Both the position numbers and the translations under genes were made by a program. From the sequence record PP886230: a stretch of 64,000 nt of DNA, one strand, 5' to 3'. The DNA comes from Escherichia phage vB_EcoM_E9.1. The notes under the pieces were generated by a model that searched no databases, had not been told where the DNA came from, and was given only the letters and a program-made list of their open reading frames with translations. This document shows, one piece after another, positions 25,073 to 60,646 of this stretch. Within the stretch, counting starts at the first letter, position 1, and each line of letters begins with the position of its first letter.

Positions 25073-25101
25073 TTGGACAAGAACAGATATTGTGATATAA
25101 T
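25073..25101 (+). promoter_or_regulatory. sigma70-like promoter, extended -10
   Basis: TTGGAC-N17-TGTGATATAAT. Confidence 0.5.
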
Positions 25102-28994: not shown

Positions 28995-29330
<336 letters not shown>

Positions 29331-29331
29331 A

Positions 29332-29514
29332 ATGACACACGAAGAATGGATGTCCAAACAGCATAAAGAACATGACTGCTTTGGGAATGGCATTCGTCAG
29401 GTACATTATGATATATTAAGAGATGAAAATCTTTTCAGGTCATATGTTTTGGATACCAGAAAACCCTGGTTTATATGCGAACTGGCATTTAGAAAGTCAA
29501 ATAATCAAAACTAA
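29332..29514 (+). CDS. MTHEEWM-family small protein
   Basis: MTHEEWMSKQHKEHDCFGNGIRQVHYDILRDENLFRSYVLDTRKPWFICELAFRK...; ATG 29332 inside track ORF 29314..29514. Confidence 0.5.
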   Translation: MTHEEWMSKQHKEHDCFGNGIRQVHYDILRDENLFRSYVLDTRKPWFICELAFRKSNNQN

Positions 29515-29530
29515 ACAAGGAATACAAAAA

Positions 29531-29749
29531 ATGGAAACAACTTTATTTGAAGTTATTCAATCATTAAAACCTGAAGATGAGGTTCAAGTACTACTACATG
29601 GTTATCGTGTAAAAGGTACTGTGGTTTTAGTCAATGATACAACATTGGTTATTACAGAAACAAACCCATATGATAGTAATCAACTTGTCAATATCCATAT
29701 CGATATCACTGGAATTATTGGTGTCGGTGTATCTAAAACACTTGCATAA
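29531..29749 (+). CDS. hypothetical protein
   Basis: Internal ATG of track ORF 29423..29749 behind RBS AAGGAA. Confidence 0.45.
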   Translation: METTLFEVIQSLKPEDEVQVLLHGYRVKGTVVLVNDTTLVITETNPYDSNQLVNIHIDITGIIGVGVSKTLA

Positions 29750-29802
29750 ATCATTAATTCATTATATAATGATTATCACTGGTTCTAGATGAGGATAATA
29801 TT

Positions 29803-30075
29803 ATGCATTTTGAAAAATTCAACGTAAATCGTAACACACGCATTGAAGTTCTTTATGAAACTCAAGACACCATTAGTATTCGTACAAGTAGTGGGGATGT
29901 ATATCATGACTGTACGATTGGCTGGGAACAGGGAAGAACGCGTAGTGCAGTATTTGATAATTATCGCTTTTATCAAGGAGACACTACGATTTGGCCTGAA
30001 TACGTAGAAGATATTGCGTTTGAAGATGAACATAAAGATGAATTTATCAAATTTAATCCTCAAACTGAATCATAA
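29803..30075 (+). CDS. hypothetical protein
   Basis: Track ORF; RBS GAGGA. Confidence 0.5.
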   Translation: MHFEKFNVNRNTRIEVLYETQDTISIRTSSGDVYHDCTIGWEQGRTRSAVFDNYRFYQGDTTIWPEYVEDIAFEDEHKDEFIKFNPQTES

Positions 30076-30079
30076 ATAA

Positions 30080-30208
<129 letters not shown>

Positions 30209-30212
30209 AAAT

Positions 30213-30314
<102 letters not shown>

Positions 30315-30318
30315 AACC

Positions 30319-30479
30319 ATGACGCATGAAGAATGGATGAATGACATTAATTTTAGATATGCAGGTTTCGGTAACTGGAGAAAGTATCATTGGGAAATCA
30401 TGTCAGACCCAGCAGAATACGATAAACTTATAAACCATGAAGCGTATCCGTGGTTCTTTATTGAAATAATGGTACGAAC

Positions 30480-30483
<4 letters not shown>
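30319..30483 (+). CDS. MTHEEWM-family small protein (54 aa)
   Basis: Below track cutoff; MTHEEWMNDINFRYAGFGNWRKYHWEIMSDPAEYDKLINHEAYPWFFIEIMVRT. Confidence 0.5.
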
Positions 30484-30645
<162 letters not shown>

Positions 30646-30653
30646 AAAAAAAG

Positions 30654-31067
<414 letters not shown>

Positions 31068-31124
31068 CTAAATAATTCAGTACTGAGGATATTAATATGT
31101 TTAAAGATGAACGTCCAGATTTGT

Positions 31125-31162
<38 letters not shown>

Positions 31163-31168
31163 GAATTC

Positions 31169-31510
31169 CACAATCAGACGTATATGGTGTAAGTTACGTC
31201 GATGCAATCCAGAACAAGATCTCTGGTACTCTAGGAAGTGGTGAATGTTAACCTAGACGGGTTTGATAATTGGACGATAGGCAATTATTACTTGACTAGC
31301 AGGTTTAAACTAGAGGTGACTATCCTTCACCAAACTGGAAAACCGGATGGACTTTTATTTAAAAGGGTAAGGCGTGGAAATATGTTTACAGTAGTTGCTT
31401 TTAGTATCCTGTACGCCCCACGTCAAGGTAGCCGAAAGGCAAGTTAAAACGGGTGGTTATAAAGCTGAATTAACAGCGACGTTTAAAAGCGTCACCATCC
31501 ATTTTTTTTT
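31169..31510 (+). ncRNA. candidate structured RNA or leader
   Basis: ~340 nt GC-richer stretch between promoter 31134 and a 9-T run at 31502-31510; only a doubtful 69-aa ORF (31238..31447). Confidence 0.25.
31478..31510 (+). terminator. putative terminator (weak stem, long T-run)
   Basis: GACG-loop-CGTC then ACCATCCA + TTTTTTTTT. Confidence 0.4.
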
Positions 31511-31526
31511 AATTAAAGTTGGTGAT

Positions 31527-32164
<638 letters not shown>

Positions 32165-32165
32165 T

Positions 32166-32335
<170 letters not shown>

Positions 32336-32358
32336 CGAAATTACAATAGGAAATTAAA

Positions 32359-32544
32359 ATGCAACTTTTAATTCTTTCAATATTGTATATTATTATAATG
32401 GTTCCGATATCAATACGTTTAATTACAGTTGAACGATTTTTATCGAAACATGGAAATAGATCTATGATCTTTGTACCAATTGGGCTTATATTGTTTGGTA
32501 TTTTTGCATTTATAATGGGAATTAACGCTACATTCATTTCATAG
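32359..32544 (+). CDS. small membrane protein
   Basis: Track ORF; two hydrophobic helices; RBS TAGGAAA. Confidence 0.4.
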   Translation: MQLLILSILYIIIMVPISIRLITVERFLSKHGNRSMIFVPIGLILFGIFAFIMGINATFIS

Positions 32545-32553
32545 GAAACAAAT

Positions 32554-32811
<258 letters not shown>

Positions 32812-32814
32812 CTA

Positions 32815-33015
32815 ATGTCAAAATTTATTAACCGTAAGAAAAGAAAAAAACGTTCTAAAGAAGAAATTCTTCAGTTAATTAAACAAAACAAGAAAGAATT
32901 GATACTTGATGAATATGTTTTCCAATACGGAATGAAAAGTGGTTTAGTGAAAGAATGTAATAATAAGTACAGTACTGAGCATTTTGATCTTATTAAAAAT
33001 ATTCTTTTAAAATAA
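32815..33015 (+). CDS. small basic protein
   Basis: Track ORF; K/R-rich N-terminus. Confidence 0.45.
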   Translation: MSKFINRKKRKKRSKEEILQLIKQNKKELILDEYVFQYGMKSGLVKECNNKYSTEHFDLIKNILLK

Positions 33016-33183
33016 AAGTATTTTTTGGATTAATTATGAGATTAACACTTGAAGAAAAAGAAGCTATTCGAGTACTGGTACGGTAAAAAGAAATTGACAA
33101 AATATGTCATTTCACCTAAACTACGTGGTAAGACTTCACTTGGTGTATTCAACGCCGCAGACTTAAACTACTAGCGGGTATTA

Positions 33184-33525
<342 letters not shown>

Positions 33526-33550
33526 GGACGTAGGATGTAAGTATTCAGTT

Positions 33551-33734
<184 letters not shown>

Positions 33735-33736
33735 TA

Positions 33737-33793
<57 letters not shown>

Positions 33794-33794
33794 A

Positions 33795-33826
<32 letters not shown>

Positions 33827-33878
33827 TACCAAGCAGCTTGAAGAACTTTGTAGTGCTGCACCTATGCCGACTCTTGGC

Positions 33879-33979
<101 letters not shown>

Positions 33980-33991
33980 TATCTTACTTCT

Positions 33992-34081
<90 letters not shown>

Positions 34082-38069: not shown

Positions 38070-38214
38070 TATAATTGTTGATGTGAAGAAGAAGGAAGTC
38101 GTTATGAAAAAGCAAGCATATAGAATTTTAGAAGACTTCCATCTAAAAGCATTTATAATGAAGTTCTGTACAGATGAACATCTTACCGGACGAGTAATAC
38201 GTAAGGAGTTGTAA

Positions 38215-38556
38215 ATGAACTTAAGTTCAACAATTCAGTACTTGAGCAGTAACTTCGAGAAAATTATTTCTCGCGGTGGGATGATTGTACACCCAGAAAC
38301 AGAGGAAATGTACATCATTGGATTTGATAAAAATTCTTATGATCAAGTACTTGTAATTTCCAAGTTAGAAAGTTATAATGAAGTTGTTCAGTTTTGCTGT
38401 ACCGAATTTGGTATCTATATTAAAGACGCTGAAACTAATACAATTTCGCATTATTTTTACCACACACTGATGGGTACTAAAGACTTCGGCTTGAAGTTCG
38501 ATGATTTAGTACAATGTCACTATATGTTTAAAACCTTCCCAGCTAGTGGGCATTAA
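38215..38556 (+). CDS. hypothetical protein
   Basis: Track ORF; RBS AAGGAG. Confidence 0.5.
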   Translation: MNLSSTIQYLSSNFEKIISRGGMIVHPETEEMYIIGFDKNSYDQVLVISKLESYNEVVQFCCTEFGIYIKDAETNTISHYFYHTLMGTKDFGLKFDDLVQCHYMFKTFPASGH

Positions 38557-43338: not shown

Positions 43339-43760
43339 GAGGCTATAATAAGATTTGTATTTTTGTATTTTTAGTTTGTGCATTCAATTCGTTTGGTTAC
43401 TACTGTACAGAAAATAATATTTCATATGGTTTAAATCCTTTGTGGTTTACAATTTCCAATGTAGCACAAATTGGTATTGCTCTTATGTCTGCACTTATGT
43501 TCTGTCCAATTGTCACTATGGATACTGATCATGAAAGGCTTGGATTTCTCCGTGATACTGGAGACGAACCTTACAGTAGATTGATTGTGTTGTATCCATT
43601 TATTGTTATTTTAGGTACTAACATCCAACTTGGGTCATTATCTAATAGTGTTACATCAGCAGCTATTGCTATATTTGCATTCACATTTTTTATGGTACAC
43701 AAATCAGTACTTAATTGGTATATCACAAAAATGGCAGAAGAAGGTACTAAAAATACTTGA
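43335..43760 (+). CDS. integral membrane protein
   Basis: Track ORF; ATGA overlap. Confidence 0.5.
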   Translation: MRGYNKICIFVFLVCAFNSFGYYCTENNISYGLNPLWFTISNVAQIGIALMSALMFCPIVTMDTDHERLGFLRDTGDEPYSRLIVLYPFIVILGTNIQLGSLSNSVTSAAIAIFAFTFFMVHKSVLNWYITKMAEEGTKNT

Positions 43761-43785
43761 CATAATTTAGTATGTTATATATAAT
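43757..43785 (+). promoter_or_regulatory. sigma70-like promoter
   Basis: TTGACA-N17-TATAAT; -35 overlaps upstream stop codon. Confidence 0.6.
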
Positions 43786-44077: not shown

Positions 44078-44106
44078 TTGACATAACAAATAATATGGAG
44101 TACAAT
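44078..44106 (+). promoter_or_regulatory. sigma70-like promoter
   Basis: TTGACA-N17-TACAAT. Confidence 0.55.
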
Positions 44107-44832: not shown

Positions 44833-45330
44833 ATGACAACTGTTTATATTGATAAACGATTAAATTTATTGATTACCGATTCTAGAGTTACGTCAACTAT
44901 ACCACGAAACTTATTTGGTTTTTTCCCACTAAGACCAAAATATCAATATGGAGTTGTTAATCAAAAAACTTTATATGTACATGACCGTTTATTCAGTGCT
45001 AGTGGGGTAGTAAGTGAAATTGATAAAGTACTGGATTGGTTAATTAATAAAGTACCAGTTATACCTGACAGAAAGTTAAGTTGCCATTGTGTGCTTCTTT
45101 CTAAAGATTATGTTATTCATATGATTTTAACTAAAGGAAAGTTTATTAAAAAACTTGAATATCTACATGAAGACTACACTTTCTTTATGGGAAGTGGTGG
45201 TGAATACATGCTAGATGCTGCTATTCATGAAGAACATACAACTTTATATGATAAAGTGTTTAGTACTTTCATGGATGTGCACAACCATGATTGCTTCACA
45301 GATGATAATATTAATGTATATCGATTTTGA
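44833..45330 (+). CDS. hypothetical protein
   Basis: Track ORF. Confidence 0.5.
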   Translation: MTTVYIDKRLNLLITDSRVTSTIPRNLFGFFPLRPKYQYGVVNQKTLYVHDRLFSASGVVSEIDKVLDWLINKVPVIPDRKLSCHCVLLSKDYVIHMILTKGKFIKKLEYLHEDYTFFMGSGGEYMLDAAIHEEHTTLYDKVFSTFMDVHNHDCFTDDNINVYRF

Positions 45331-45351
45331 TTTCGTCATTAGGAGATGTAA

Positions 45352-46317
45352 GTGAAAAAGCTTGATTTAAATACAATTGCCGAAGAAGTTCTGGATGAAT
45401 GTTTTGCTAATGAAGAAGTCAACACACTAGAAGCCTTAGATTTCGTTGAAGATAAAGATGATAATGAAGGTAAAGTACAAAGCAGTTTCAAATATAATAT
45501 TACACTTAAGCGACCACCAAATGTTTCCAATGAAGATCTAATTCGTGATATTCAAGCTGGTATCAATGTAAAGAAAAACACTGAACTGTTAGTTCGTTAC
45601 AATTATGGACTGATTATTGATGTAGCAAGTAAATGTACTTGTTATATCCCATTTGAAGATAAGATTTCATATGGTGTTGAGGGGTTCATGAGAGCACTAA
45701 AAACCTTTGATCTTAATAAGAATGTTAAGTTCATTACCTATGCTTCTTCTAGTATTTACATGACAGTCTATAACGAAAGTTCTGACGCTAACTATATGGT
45801 ACACTTCCCACGTTATATGAGTGTTCATAAGATCAAAGTAAAAAGATTCTGCCAGGAATATATGCGTAAACATGGTGTTCGCCCAACACCTGAAATAATC
45901 TCAGAGGGTACTGGGATTGAGATTCAGCATGTTAATAATTGTTTGTTATTTCAAAGCGAATACACTTCGCTGGATGCACCATTAGACGGTGTTACAGATG
46001 GTACATTAGGTGACATTATTCATTCACCTGCTTCTGATTTTAACCTCAATGTTGATAGTATCCGTGCACCTTTGCGTTATGCTATCAATGAACTGACCAA
46101 CGAATTGAGTACTAAAGAACGTGAGATTATCCAGCGTGTTCATGGTCTAGGTGAATATGAACCTGAAACGCTTCGTGAGATTGCTGATAATGGTTTTGTT
46201 GATGATAATGGAAAATATGTTAAATCCCGTTCATCAATACATCGAAAGTACAGTGAAGCTATGCAAAAGCTTAAGAAGTTAGTACTTGCAAAAGGGTACG
46301 AATACGAAGATTTCTAA
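45352..46317 (+). CDS. sigma-70-family RNA polymerase sigma factor
   Basis: Region 2-like ELLVRYNYGLIIDVASKC...VEGFMRALKTFD...FITYASSSIY...HFPRYM; region 4-like KEREIIQRVHGLGEYEPETLREIADN; GTG start 6 nt after AGGAG. Confidence 0.65.
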   Translation: MKKLDLNTIAEEVLDECFANEEVNTLEALDFVEDKDDNEGKVQSSFKYNITLKRPPNVSNEDLIRDIQAGINVKKNTELLVRYNYGLIIDVASKCTCYIPFEDKISYGVEGFMRALKTFDLNKNVKFITYASSSIYMTVYNESSDANYMVHFPRYMSVHKIKVKRFCQEYMRKHGVRPTPEIISEGTGIEIQHVNNCLLFQSEYTSLDAPLDGVTDGTLGDIIHSPASDFNLNVDSIRAPLRYAINELTNELSTKEREIIQRVHGLGEYEPETLREIADNGFVDDNGKYVKSRSSIHRKYSEAMQKLKKLVLAKGYEYEDF

Positions 46318-46324
46318 AGAACAA

Positions 46325-46350
46325 GGGTTGGCTTATGCCAACCTTTTTTT
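46325..46350 (+). terminator. intrinsic terminator
   Basis: AAGGGTTGGC-TTAT-GCCAACCTT hairpin followed by TTTTTTT. Confidence 0.7.
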
Positions 46351-46351
46351 A

Positions 46352-46380
46352 TGGGATGAAGTAAAAGTTTGTGATATAAT
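46352..46380 (+). promoter_or_regulatory. promoter, extended -10 with TGGGAT -35-like element
   Basis: TGGGAT-N17-TGTGATATAAT; same architecture as the tRNA-Ser promoter at 30080. Confidence 0.45.
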
Positions 46381-46874
46381 TATCTTGTACAATTCTGTTG
46401 GCATGATATTCATGTACCTGATCCACTCGAAAACGTAGAGGGCAGTTGAGCAGTCCGACAGTGCGAACAGCAAAAGAAACCCGTTAGATGTGGGCATAGT
46501 TTGAACCCCTCACGGCAATGCGGCTGTATAAAGAACCACGTTAGGATAGCTGGTGGTTCCTTGATAGACATATAAGGATAACACCTTACGAATTATCTAA
46601 GGGAGAGTTATCGAATTTTGTACAGGAAAGTTGCGTCCAAAATTTGAGTACTCACATTAAGTATTTGATTGCATAGATACTTAATGAAGATACACTATGT
46701 TTAAAAGTGTAGACCGTCATATGAAACTGAAGTAGAGAGAAACAGGATGACCCGCTTTCGCACTCTTTATGAGTAATCTTCAATGCAATAGCTCTGATAC
46801 CATCAGCGTCAAATTTCCCTCCTTGTGGGGGGAAGAAAAATCCCTTCCTCAAATCCCGTCAATATTAAAAGTCC
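46381..46874 (+). ncRNA. candidate large structured ncRNA (identity unknown)
   Basis: ~490 nt with stops in all three + frames, visibly GC-richer than flanks, local hairpins (e.g. GAACCAC...GTGGTTC), bounded by promoters at 46352 and 46875. Confidence 0.3.
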
Positions 46875-47405: not shown

Positions 47406-48194
47406 ATGAGCACTATAGATGAACTGATTCGACGGAATTCAAAATATTACCAACCATCAGAAATTGTAGGTAACATTACCAAATCAGAGTTTGGTCCAAA
47501 TACTCGAAAACTCATTCATGTAATGTCACGTGATGGCTTTAAATGTGATTGTTGCGGTGAATCTAATGTAGTATTCACTTTACACAAGCACAGTACTAAA
47601 GATCGTTATAAATTCAGACCTTATGTACTTAAAGGGAAACGCCTTGTACGCATGACGTTAGACCATAATGTACTGGACTGTCTTCAGGGCGGTAATGATA
47701 AAGAGAACATGACTGCACTGTGTGAAGATTGTAACGCATTACGCCAGCATAAGTTTGCTGAATACAGTGAGTTTAAACACTGGTATCATAACGCGGATCG
47801 TTCAATCGAGCCTGACGTTAACTACTGCTTCATTGAGTACATTAAGAATGCCAAAGATACATACATTCTTAAATCAATGTCACCTATTACCGTGTTTCCT
47901 GAGAACCTATTCACTACATTAAAGAATAGTTTTATTGTGGGTGATATTGATGCATTCAAGTATTTTGACAAAGGTGCAAAACATTTTGAAATTCAATGTC
48001 TTAGTACTGCACTATGTGAACTCATTAAAATTTACATAAAAGAGTATTTGGGTATTGACAATGTACGTGTACCAGAGTATACTTTTTCTATTGAATTCGA
48101 TTGTGAATCAATCAAAGAGTTTGGAATTCTTTTCAATAAACAAATAGAACTTGCAATTCAAAACGAAATCAAGTACTATACTACTAACATTTAA
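47406..48194 (+). CDS. HNH endonuclease (homing-endonuclease-like)
   Basis: FKCDCCGE...TLDHNVLDCLQGGNDKENMTALCEDCNALRQH fits the HNH Cys/His/Asn pattern. Confidence 0.7.
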   Translation: MSTIDELIRRNSKYYQPSEIVGNITKSEFGPNTRKLIHVMSRDGFKCDCCGESNVVFTLHKHSTKDRYKFRPYVLKGKRLVRMTLDHNVLDCLQGGNDKENMTALCEDCNALRQHKFAEYSEFKHWYHNADRSIEPDVNYCFIEYIKNAKDTYILKSMSPITVFPENLFTTLKNSFIVGDIDAFKYFDKGAKHFEIQCLSTALCELIKIYIKEYLGIDNVRVPEYTFSIEFDCESIKEFGILFNKQIELAIQNEIKYYTTNI

Positions 48195-54599: not shown

Positions 54600-54791
54600 A
54601 TGTTGATTTATCAAAGTGATAATATTCGTGTTATGCAGCATCCCTACTTACAAATCTTTGATGTGCAGCAGTATATGGAAGGTGATGACCCAAGAACCTA
54701 TGGTCGTAAGTATGATTACTTCACTGTAAAGCAGTGTAAAAATATTAACGAAGTACGACAATTAGTTCAAGAACTTCAAAACAAAGGTTGA
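54600..54791 (+). CDS. hypothetical small protein
   Basis: Internal ATG of track ORF 54546..54791 behind AAGGA. Confidence 0.4.
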   Translation: MLIYQSDNIRVMQHPYLQIFDVQQYMEGDDPRTYGRKYDYFTVKQCKNINEVRQLVQELQNKG

Positions 54792-54817
54792 CTTCGGTCA
54801 GCCTTTTTTGTTATAAT
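54784..54817 (+). terminator. terminator-promoter cassette, copy 1 of 5
   Basis: AAGGTTGAC-TTCG-GTCAGCCTT hairpin + TTTTTT overlapping stop codon; TTGACT in the stem and TATAAT 18 nt downstream. Confidence 0.6.
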
Positions 54818-57528: not shown

Positions 57529-57558
57529 TTGGGACAACCATTCTTATTATGATATAAT
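57529..57558 (+). promoter_or_regulatory. promoter, extended -10 with TTGGGA -35-like element
   Basis: TTGGGAC-N17/18-TATGATATAAT; ~80-nt leader with hairpin TGTCATT...AATGACA. Confidence 0.45.
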
Positions 57559-58025: not shown

Positions 58026-58060
58026 AGGGGTTGACTAAGGTCAGCCCTTTGTTGTATCAT
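58026..58060 (+). terminator. terminator-promoter cassette, copy 2 of 5 (variant loop TAAG)
   Basis: GGGTTGAC-TAAG-GTCAGCCC hairpin + TTTGTTG; TTGACT in the stem, TATCAT downstream. Confidence 0.5.
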
Positions 58061-58209: not shown

Positions 58210-58242
58210 AAGGTTGACTTCGGTCAGCCTTTTCTTTATACT
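58210..58242 (+). terminator. terminator-promoter cassette, copy 3 of 5
   Basis: AAGGTTGAC-TTCG-GTCAGCCTT hairpin + TTTCTTT; TTGACT-N17-TATACT. Confidence 0.55.
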
Positions 58243-60611: not shown

Positions 60612-60646
60612 AAGGGTTGACTTCGGTCAGCCTTTTTTGTTATGAT
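60612..60646 (+). terminator. terminator-promoter cassette, copy 5 of 5
   Basis: AAGGGTTGAC-TTCG-GTCAGCCTT hairpin + TTTTTT; TTGACT-N18-TATGAT. Confidence 0.6.

Follow-up and report, generated by a model that had tools for sequence, protein, structure and literature searches.

A phage-encoded sigma-70-family factor in an Asteriusvirus jumbo coliphage and a candidate class of middle promoters

Introduction

What role does a sigma-70-family sigma factor play in a jumbo phage for which no RNA polymerase (RNAP) gene is annotated? The question is raised by an open reading frame (ORF) at positions 45352-46317 on the plus strand of a 64,000-nucleotide (nt) stretch of Escherichia phage vB_EcoM_E9.1 (sequence record PP886230), which was analysed as a whole and is hereafter called the window. 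The window represents an Asteriusvirus (PBECO4/121Q-type) jumbo coliphage, and such phages have genomes of ~350 kb. No RNAP gene was found among the annotations of all 551 PBECO4 genes, and the same genome carries, as a separate gene, gp530, which is gp55-like and bears the annotation 'sigma factor for late transcription'. We propose, with a probability of about 0.6, that the ORF encodes a middle-gene sigma factor that would replace sigma70 in a cascade leading from the host sigma70 via the phage sigma to the gp55-like sigma.

The sigma gene itself is already annotated and discussed, and is not a discovery of this study. Iyer et al. 2021 noted that group 2 jumbo phages lack an RNAP yet encode sigma factors, and that a fuller form near to cellular RpoD is typical of this group. 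In the CBB paper, CBB_513 was described as having regions 2, 3 and 4 and as lying in the early region, and TGAAACG-type promoters ahead of DNA-synthesis genes were reported, independently of the present work, in both the CBB and the GAP32 paper. Both the Sharanji paper and a review from 2026 state that the sigma 'likely associates with host RNAP' and nothing beyond, and our literature search found no experimental work on any member of the sigma subfamily. What we add here is a testable model, comprising a promoter consensus, ~30 target sites, a cascade via the late sigma gene and the specific residues involved.

Results

A sigma-70-family factor with regions 2, 3 and 4

A first-pass annotation, made from the letters of the window alone, had described an ORF of 321 codons starting at GTG behind a strong AGGAG. 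All of these features were confirmed on the sequence, and the ORF ends with a TAA stop codon (Table 1). The N-terminus of the product, MKKLDLN..., is kept in the orthologues of four phage genera, and this conservation supports the GTG start.

Judging from profile searches and a predicted structure, the product is a sigma-70-family sigma factor with regions 2, 3 and 4. Pfam Sigma70_r3 matched above its cut-off (E=2e-9, 37.8 bits vs 25.3), and Sigma70_r2 and Sigma70_r4 matched slightly under their gathering scores (E=7e-5, 23.0 bits vs 24.0, and E=3e-5, 23.8 bits vs 24.1, respectively). The latter match, at residues 251-279, covers the first half of the model only and ends at an insertion in region 4.2. 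Other models bridge this part of the protein: NCBIfam RpoD_Cterm aligned over residues 79-283 (E=6e-25), the alignment to rpoS_proteo extended as far as residue 319, and those to the rpoS and sigma70-ECF models reached residues 309-319. The score for TIGR02937 (sigma-70 family) exceeds the curated cut-off, PHROG 351 'RNA polymerase sigma factor' was matched with E=2e-60, and the best sequence matches in the PDB were RpoD, SigA, SigB and RpoS chains (E down to 7e-17). The AlphaFold2 model has a mean pLDDT of 70.9, with ~85-90 inside the domains and 79-90 in the sigma2 helices, and places sigma2, sigma3 and sigma4 within the boundaries listed in Table 1; residues 1-49 are disordered and the 3.2-like linker is of low confidence. 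The top Foldseek matches of this model were sigmaS and sigmaA chains in holoenzyme structures. The region 2-like and region 4-like (helix-turn-helix) segments of the first-pass annotation were thus found by Pfam, NCBIfam, PHROG and PDB searches as well as by AlphaFold2 and Foldseek. The annotation had named a failure of sigma-70 profiles to detect regions 2 and 4 as the result that would speak against it; regions 2, 3 and 4 were all detected.

The epithet 'full-length' holds for the presence of regions 2, 3 and 4. It does not extend to region 1, as neither Pfam Sigma70_r1_1 nor Sigma70_r1_2 gave a match at E<=1 in the protein. The N-terminal ~55 residues are acidic and predicted to be disordered, and bear a conserved start motif, KKL(D/N)L..I..EVLDECF. 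Some records name the protein RpoD or RpoS. By its profile scores and residues, it belongs to the sigma-70 family but falls outside these two equivalogs, because no region 1.2 is detected in it, its specificity residues differ, and the NCBIfam equivalog models all score far under their cut-offs (e.g., RpoD_Cterm, 88 bits vs 354).

A discrete subfamily of jumbo-phage sigma factors

The sigma gene is 98.4-99.8% identical in DNA to that in 20 records of Escherichia/Salmonella PBECO4/121Q-type jumbo phages, most of which label the gene 'RNA polymerase sigma factor'; several records give 'hypothetical protein'. Orthologues of 31-60% identity were detected by tblastn in RaK2/K64-1 (Alcyoneusvirus), GAP32/CBB/XbC2 (Mimasvirus), Munch/7t3-type Salmonella phages and others, and those annotated include PBECO4 gp356, 121Q gp167, RaK2 ORF244, GAP32_490 and CBB_513. 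The word-indexed protein search covered relatives of >=47% identity only, and the more distant orthologues were taken from tblastn. The orthologue of the Salmonella phage PHA46 (PP191103.1, 25245-26204) is unannotated; it starts with GTG and is 99.7% identical to the annotated Munch sigma.

An exhaustive HMMER scan of 1.84 billion representatives retrieved 15 clusters at E<=1e-30 and three more at ~1e-29, followed by a gap down to ~1e-20, where generic sigmas start. All full-length members examined share three hallmarks, namely the 4.2 insertion, a missing pair of tryptophans, and the N-terminal KKL(N/D)L..I..EVLDECF, and the 4.2 insertion was absent from the generic sigmas examined. By these sequence criteria, the protein is a member of a discrete RaK2-like jumbo-phage sigma subfamily within PHROG 351.

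The Pfam scores for regions 2 and 4, slightly under the gathering thresholds, might suggest a decaying, non-functional gene acquired from a bacterium (a 'moron'). Nevertheless, the gene is intact, its synteny extends over four or more jumbo-phage genera with identities of 31-99%, the hallmarks are conserved, the identity to any cellular sigma is ~25-31% at most, and a strong ribosome-binding site, promoter and terminator are all present. This conservation pattern essentially excludes a non-functional gene.

Altered residues in regions 2, 3 and 4

The window protein was aligned with the orthologues of four phage genera and E. coli RpoD, whose numbering is used below; the functional roles of the named residues are those of E. 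coli sigma70. In region 2, the equivalents of D403, G408, G411, M413, F419, F427, T429, Y430 and A431 are kept, and the KF(S/I)TYA motif including the Y430 equivalent is retained. W433 and W434 are replaced by Ser-Ser in the window protein, and by Ser, Thr or Ala in every orthologue aligned; many group 3 sigmas also lack this pair. In Asteriusvirus, region 2.4 carries Q437M, T440Y and R441N, with the Q437 equivalent retained in the Mimasvirus and Munch-type sigmas, and region 3.0 carries H455Y and E458V. In region 2.2, three residues implicated in beta' binding in E. coli are changed (Q406S, E407Y and N409V).

Further changes lie in region 4.2. All aligned phage orthologues have an 8-residue insertion, G-F/Y-x-D-x-x-G-K-x-v, in the turn of the helix-turn-helix, which AlphaFold2 models as a small beta-hairpin between the helix 274-279 and the recognition helix 293-314. 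Within the latter, E585S, R586S, R588H and an altered Q589 stand beside an unchanged R584. Taken together, the specificity residues W433, W434, Q437, T440, E585 and R588 are all replaced and R584 alone is kept, a pattern different from that of group 1/2 sigmas. A local-pair MAFFT alignment put the E. coli 4.2 recognition helix opposite the insertion, and was rejected given the AlphaFold2 secondary structure and an A-x-x-K-L-K/R motif.

The sigma gene closes a predicted early operon

The window comprises nearly exclusively small genes on the plus strand, plus six tRNAs, and contains dozens of consensus TTGACA-N16-18-TATAAT sites, often perfect TTGACA-N17-TATAAT with A-rich upstream stretches. 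Two such promoters (starting at 43757 and 44078) precede a tightly packed group of four genes, of which the sigma gene comes last and is followed by an intrinsic terminator. As two consensus sigma70 promoters stand upstream and a terminator downstream, the sigma gene should be an early gene transcribed by the host sigma70 holoenzyme. For the operon partners, Pfam gave no match, and PHROG searches gave unknown-function families and one weak HslV-like match. The latter concerns the gene directly upstream of the sigma gene (44833-45330 (+), 165 residues, starting with MTTVYID...), which weakly matches PHROG 1040 'peptidase HslV family' (E=9e-6) and may code for a protein that is N-terminal-Thr hydrolase-like and is expressed together with the sigma.

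A strand-specific promoter class with a different -35 box

Promoters were sought in the whole PBECO4 genome by k-mer enrichment in upstream regions, followed by position weight matrices (PWMs). Four classes were found, i.e., an early class with sigma70-type -10 and -35 elements (TTGACA), an immediate-early class (TTGCAA), a GRGACA class, and a late class, TATAAATA, which corresponds to the T4-like motif (T)ATAAATA. The GRGACA class was recognised on inspection as G(A/G)GACA-N16-TGnTATAAT, and thereby the search for promoters with a different -35, which the first-pass annotation had recommended, recovered a strand-specific class. The pattern GRGACA-N15-19-TAnnAT has 22 sites, all on the gene-sense strand and 19 of them with a spacer of exactly 16 nt, and control spacings gave 2-8. 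The PWM built from 17 sites matching GRGACA-N16-TA[TC]AAT, with a threshold of 14 bits or more, has 34 sense and 0 antisense matches genome-wide, compared with ~1 in Markov-simulated genomes; half of the matches (17/34) lie outside the training set.

By RefSeq annotation, these middle-type sites precede the genes for SSB (two promoters), primase, the topoisomerase II large subunit, exonuclease gp475 and RNase H. Further sites precede the gene before DNA polymerase, a Dda-like helicase, the thymidylate-synthase/DprA block and nudix/glutaredoxin, and one is located 63 nt upstream of the late sigma gene, the gp55-like gp530. The sites upstream of ssb and gp530 are intergenic by RefSeq annotation. 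The matches of 20 bits or more in the window are listed in Table 1.

The distribution of these sites bears on a possible housekeeping role, in which the phage sigma would sustain -10-dependent transcription of phage genes as a replacement or back-up after inactivation or titration of sigma70, or would be a competitor shutting off host genes, and would define no temporal class. Such a role would fit the best profile matches, which are RpoD/RpoS-type sigmas, the TATAAT -10 shared by every phage promoter class but the late one, and the annotation of the nearby PBECO4 gp319 kinase as 'inhibitor of host transcription'. The diverged 4.2 helix and region 2.4, together with the insertion in the helix-turn-helix, argue instead for an altered specificity, and TTGACA and GRGACA are sharply partitioned between genome regions, which argues for two readers. 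Canonical TTGAC[AT]-N16-17 promoters were not found in the 43-kb replication/morphogenesis module in any of the four lineages compared below. We therefore regard a housekeeping or competitor role as quite unlikely.

The box varies with the recognition helix of the sigma

We compared orthologous promoters (those of the late sigma, the gene before DNA polymerase, the gp509 orthologue, ssb with its two promoters, and RNase H) in GAP32, K64-1 and Munch within syntenic loci of 43 kb. The -10 element is TATAAT in all four lineages, whereas the -35-like box is lineage-specific. Asteriusvirus (PBECO4) combines the box GRGACA with the 4.2 helix SRSSIHRKY; the Munch-type phages, GGGACA with SRTSLHRCY (the helix being taken from the PHA46 sequence); Alcyoneusvirus (K64-1/RaK2), TGAAC(G/A) with VRGTLHYKF; and Mimasvirus (GAP32), GAAACG, equal to the 'TGAAACG' reported for CBB/GAP32, with SKATLSRRY. 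When each box was searched for in each locus, a lineage's own box had 5-7 sense matches per locus, and the box of a lineage with a different helix had none or, occasionally, one stray match. Munch and Asteriusvirus share the same box and an R-x-S-x-H-R helix pattern despite their sigmas being only 37% identical. The DNA polymerases of K64-1 and Munch are 81% and 78% identical, respectively, to that of PBECO4, yet K64-1 differs from PBECO4 in both the box and the helix. The box thus tracks the sigma 4.2 recognition helix rather than genome relatedness. As for the motif from the literature, TGAAACG occurs 9 times in the window but never in a promoter-like context, and it was rejected in favour of GRGACA as the Asteriusvirus box.

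The hosts of these phages are enterobacteria with nearly identical sigma70 proteins. Since the hosts share essentially the same sigma70, a phage-encoded reader of the box is required, and region 4.2 of the sigma would be the obvious candidate. The idea of the first-pass annotation that the protein could redirect the host polymerase to a distinct promoter class fits both the existence of the GRGACA class and the co-variation of box and helix, which would suggest a link between the protein and the class.

Several observations weigh against the sigma being the reader of this class. Firstly, these promoters have a perfect extended -10 (TGnTATAAT), an element that the host sigma70 holoenzyme should recognise even without a -35. 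Secondly, the phage sigma has lost the sigma70 residues that read -12 and TG (Q437M, T440Y, H455Y, E458V, W433S and W434S), and the region 2.2 residues mentioned above, Q406, E407 and N409, are altered as well. Thirdly, the link between sigma and box is correlative, as any other lineage-specific phage protein would co-vary too, and only three distinct box types were sampled. Moreover, region 2.4 varies between genera while the -10 stays constant, and the alignment of the recognition helix hinges on the placement of the insertion, which one MAFFT run misplaced. The perfect extended -10 and the lost -12/TG-reading residues leave room for a MotA-like mechanism or dual recognition.

The GRGACA promoters could accordingly be read by the host sigma70 via the extended -10, with a separate phage activator or appropriator on the box and with the phage sigma serving another promoter set. 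Besides the state of the -10 and of the residues facing it, T4-like relatives use the MotA/AsiA strategy according to the T4 annotation, and Mimasvirus genomes carry a small helix-turn-helix protein two genes upstream of the sigma. We failed to find AsiA or MotA homologues in the whole PBECO4 genome (best tblastn E=0.83; none by phmmer), although this is a weak negative because small fast-evolving proteins can escape such searches. In addition, the k-mer/PWM discovery gave no further conserved class that could serve as an alternative target of the sigma, and the box follows the sigma 4.2 helix across the lineages, both of which speak against a host sigma70 aided by an activator. We consider such an arrangement unlikely, though worth keeping in mind, and prefer the phage sigma as the reader of the GRGACA box.

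A structured RNA-like element beside the sigma gene

Behind the sigma terminator lies an ORF-poor stretch of 650 bp, which is unannotated in PBECO4 and opens with a middle-type promoter (at 46353). It contains one of four paralogues, per genome, of an element that looks, from its sequence, like an undescribed family of ~450-500-nt structured RNAs. The other three copies in PBECO4 (NC_027364.1, ~38091-38553, ~93655-94202 and ~305011-305459, minus strand) each sit behind an otherwise 'orphan' GRGACA promoter. The copies consist of invariant blocks between stems with compensatory changes: among 68 predicted pairs in the four copies, 30 show double changes, and 96.7% of cells are paired vs 34-43% in slid controls, values that were reached by 0/500 shuffles. 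We detected the element in 61 phage records at 254 places, mostly 3-5 per genome, in Asteriusvirus, Mimasvirus and Munch-type phages, where it is almost never annotated. The Munch copy (L017 5403-6108) also has a promoter, TTGGGACA-N17-TATAAT. Rfam gave nothing near a gathering score for the region around the sigma gene or the Munch copy, and no description of the element was found in the literature. The element may be more novel than the sigma itself.

Other features of the window and its relatives

An HNH endonuclease gene is located just downstream of the RNA-like element, and in GAP32 an HNH endonuclease gene likewise directly follows the sigma gene. The tRNA region holds three identical copies of a promoter cassette, TTGACTaaatagttcagtactg(a)TA(T/A)AAT. 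Farther downstream, a terminator and a promoter are fused in ~30 nt at four places; in this module the -35 hexamer TTGACT makes up the 5' arm of a hairpin resembling a terminator (GGTTGACTTCGGTCAGCC and a T-run), after which the -10 (TATAAT, TATCAT, TATACT or TATGAT) comes directly.

Outside the window, the minus strand of PBECO4 (NC_027364.1, ~133-152 kb) bears, in a small-gene region, ~20 near-identical immediate-early promoters, AAAAAGTACTTGCAa-N16-TATAATGTTTTACATC. They consist of an A-rich UP-like stretch, a -35 of TTGCAA instead of TTGACA, and then TATAAT, and behind each of them come a conserved hairpin in the 5' leader (GGGGGAA..GGTTCTCCC) and very small ORFs. TACTTGCA was considered as a phage-sigma class and rejected, as it represents this array of ~20 immediate-early promoters, which are most simply assigned to the host sigma70.

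Table 1. Features in the window discussed in the text (PWM scores refer to the middle-type matrix)
Feature	Coordinates	Strand	Remarks
Middle-type promoter TGGACA-N16-TATAAT	25074..25101	+	PWM 27.8 bits
tRNA cluster, six genes	29017-34071	+	Gly-tcc, Ser-tga, Ser-gct, Met-cat, Asn-gtt, Thr-tgt
Middle-type promoter GGGACA-N16-TATAAT	30081..30108	+	PWM 37.2 bits; 11 nt upstream of tRNA-Ser(tga) 30119-30208
Promoter cassette, three identical copies	30655, 31134, 31895		tRNA region
Early promoter TTGACA-N17-TATAAT	43757..43785	+	Perfect host-sigma70 consensus; A-rich upstream stretch; distal promoter from which transcription could enter the sigma operon
Early promoter TTGACA-N17-TACAAT	44078..44106	+	Proximal promoter of the four-gene operon ending in the sigma gene
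Three close-packed ORFs, 86/139/165 residues	44146..45330	+	Upstream of the sigma gene; unknown-function PHROGs
Shine-Dalgarno AGGAG	45341-45345	+	6 nt before the GTG of the sigma coding sequence
Sigma coding sequence	45352..46317	+	Orthologue of PBECO4 gp356 / 121Q gp167
N-terminal ~55 residues	45352..45516	+	Acidic (14 D/E vs 7 K/R, isoelectric point 4.3), predicted disordered
Sigma2 domain, residues 60-150	45529..45801	+	Profile, alignment, AlphaFold2
Sigma3 domain, residues 154-200	45811..45951	+	Pfam Sigma70_r3 over gathering score
Sigma4 domain, residues 234-314	46051..46293	+	Profiles, alignment, AlphaFold2
4.2 insertion GFVDDNGKYV	46192..46221	+	Turn of helix-turn-helix; 8-residue subfamily-specific insertion
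Predicted -35 recognition helix SRSSIHRKY	46225..46251	+	Opposite E. coli T583-E591 (TRERIRQIE) in the alignment
Intrinsic terminator, 10-bp stem then T-run	46323..46350	+	6 nt past the sigma stop codon
Middle-type promoter variant GGGATG-N16-(TGA)TATAAT	46353..46380	+	PWM 20.9 bits; immediately downstream of the sigma terminator
ORF-poor conserved element, GC 40% vs 33%	46387..46870	+	Candidate ~480-nt structured non-coding RNA; adjacent to the sigma, not part of the finding
HNH endonuclease	47406-48194	+	PHROG 35175, E=7e-188; PBECO4 gp353
Terminator-promoter modules	54788-54817, 58031-58060, 58214-58242, 60617-60646	+	Both fused in ~30 nt
Middle-type promoter GGGACA-N16-TATAAT	57531..57558	+	PWM 31.3 bits; upstream of the PBECO4 gp325 orthologue

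Discussion

A putative three-tier cascade

In the cascade that we favour, the sigma gene would be expressed early from the consensus host-sigma70 promoters, and its product would, by homology, bind the host core RNAP in place of sigma70. The phage sigma would then steer the polymerase to the G(A/G)GACA-N16-TGnTATAAT class, its modified region 4.2, with the 8-residue hairpin insertion and the SRSSIHRKY helix, reading the non-canonical -35 box. The middle tier would comprise the replication and nucleotide-metabolism genes, a tRNA and the four elements resembling structured RNAs, along with the gene for the gp55-like late sigma. In the last tier, the gp55-like sigma would transcribe the late genes from the TATAAATA promoters.

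A broader proposal is more tentative, with chances that we put slightly short of even. The whole subfamily may read genus-specific -35 boxes (GRGACA, TGAACR and GAAACG) by means of the hairpin-carrying 4.2, a structurally undescribed mode of recognition, and may be central to a cascade of three tiers that includes the gp55-like sigma and the ~450-nt RNA family. If the model put forward here holds, the subfamily would provide a natural series of sigma4/-35 specificity variants on one E. coli-type core polymerase, which would help in studying how the -35 is recognised and could serve as a source of orthogonal parts in synthetic biology. The RaK2-like jumbo phages concerned (PBECO4, 121Q, phAPEC6, RaK2, K64-1, GAP32, CBB and others) are in development as therapeutic and biocontrol agents.

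Comparison with known sigma systems

The closest counterparts are the RaK2-like orthologues named above (PBECO4 gp356, 121Q gp167, RaK2 ORF244, GAP32_490 and CBB_513), which represent the same gene in the same early small-gene setting, with 98-99.8% nucleotide identity inside Asteriusvirus and 31-46% protein identity for the other genera. Among cellular sigmas, RpoD/RpoS and FliA/SigF have the same domain order, sigma2-sigma3-sigma4, and RpoD, SigA and RpoS are the best matches. The phage protein differs from RpoD/RpoS in having no detected region 1.1/1.2 and no W433/W434, and in a 4.2 insertion of its own.

In function, the nearest characterised cases are SPO1 gp28, discussed below, and two phage proteins of the sigma-70 family, phiEco32 gp36 and gp47 of Salmonella phage 7-11, which have been shown in vitro to redirect the enterobacterial core RNAP. 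The latter two replace the host sigma70 and recognise phage-specific promoters of later genes, and the promoter of 7-11 gp47 is bipartite with a 16-nt spacer, as is the class described here. Nevertheless, they come from small podophages and are absent both from our tblastn matches and from the jumbo-phage sigma subfamily. Their promoters are also of other types, with either GTAAtg-N16-aCTA or one element only, and serve late or middle-plus-late genes, whereas in the present system a separate gp55-like sigma exists for the late genes.

The present phage is a distant relative of T4, with which it has in common a late sigma resembling gp55 as well as late motifs of the TATAAATA type. T4 gp55 has a region-2-like domain only, and the first-pass annotation rightly set the sigma described here apart from such short late sigmas: the protein has sigma2, sigma3 and sigma4, and the same genome separately encodes the gp55-like PBECO4 gp530. 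A late sigma of the T4 gp55 type works with gp33 and the sliding clamp. The middle promoters of T4 resemble the GRGACA class in that a sigma70-like -10 is kept and the -35 is replaced by a phage-specific box. The middle switch in the present phage is probably achieved by sigma replacement and not by sigma appropriation, because no MotA/AsiA homologues are detectable.

The cascade of SPO1 runs from sigmaA through gp28, the middle sigma, to gp33/34. SPO1 gp28 follows the same three-tier logic, in which an early-made phage sigma switches the host RNAP to the middle genes, although it belongs to another sequence family and acts in a Gram-positive host. The late step differs as well, being served by a second sigma-70-like pair in SPO1 and by a T4 gp55-type minimal sigma here. 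The cascade that we infer for the jumbo phage would combine a middle sigma of the SPO1 kind with a gp55 late sigma like that of T4.

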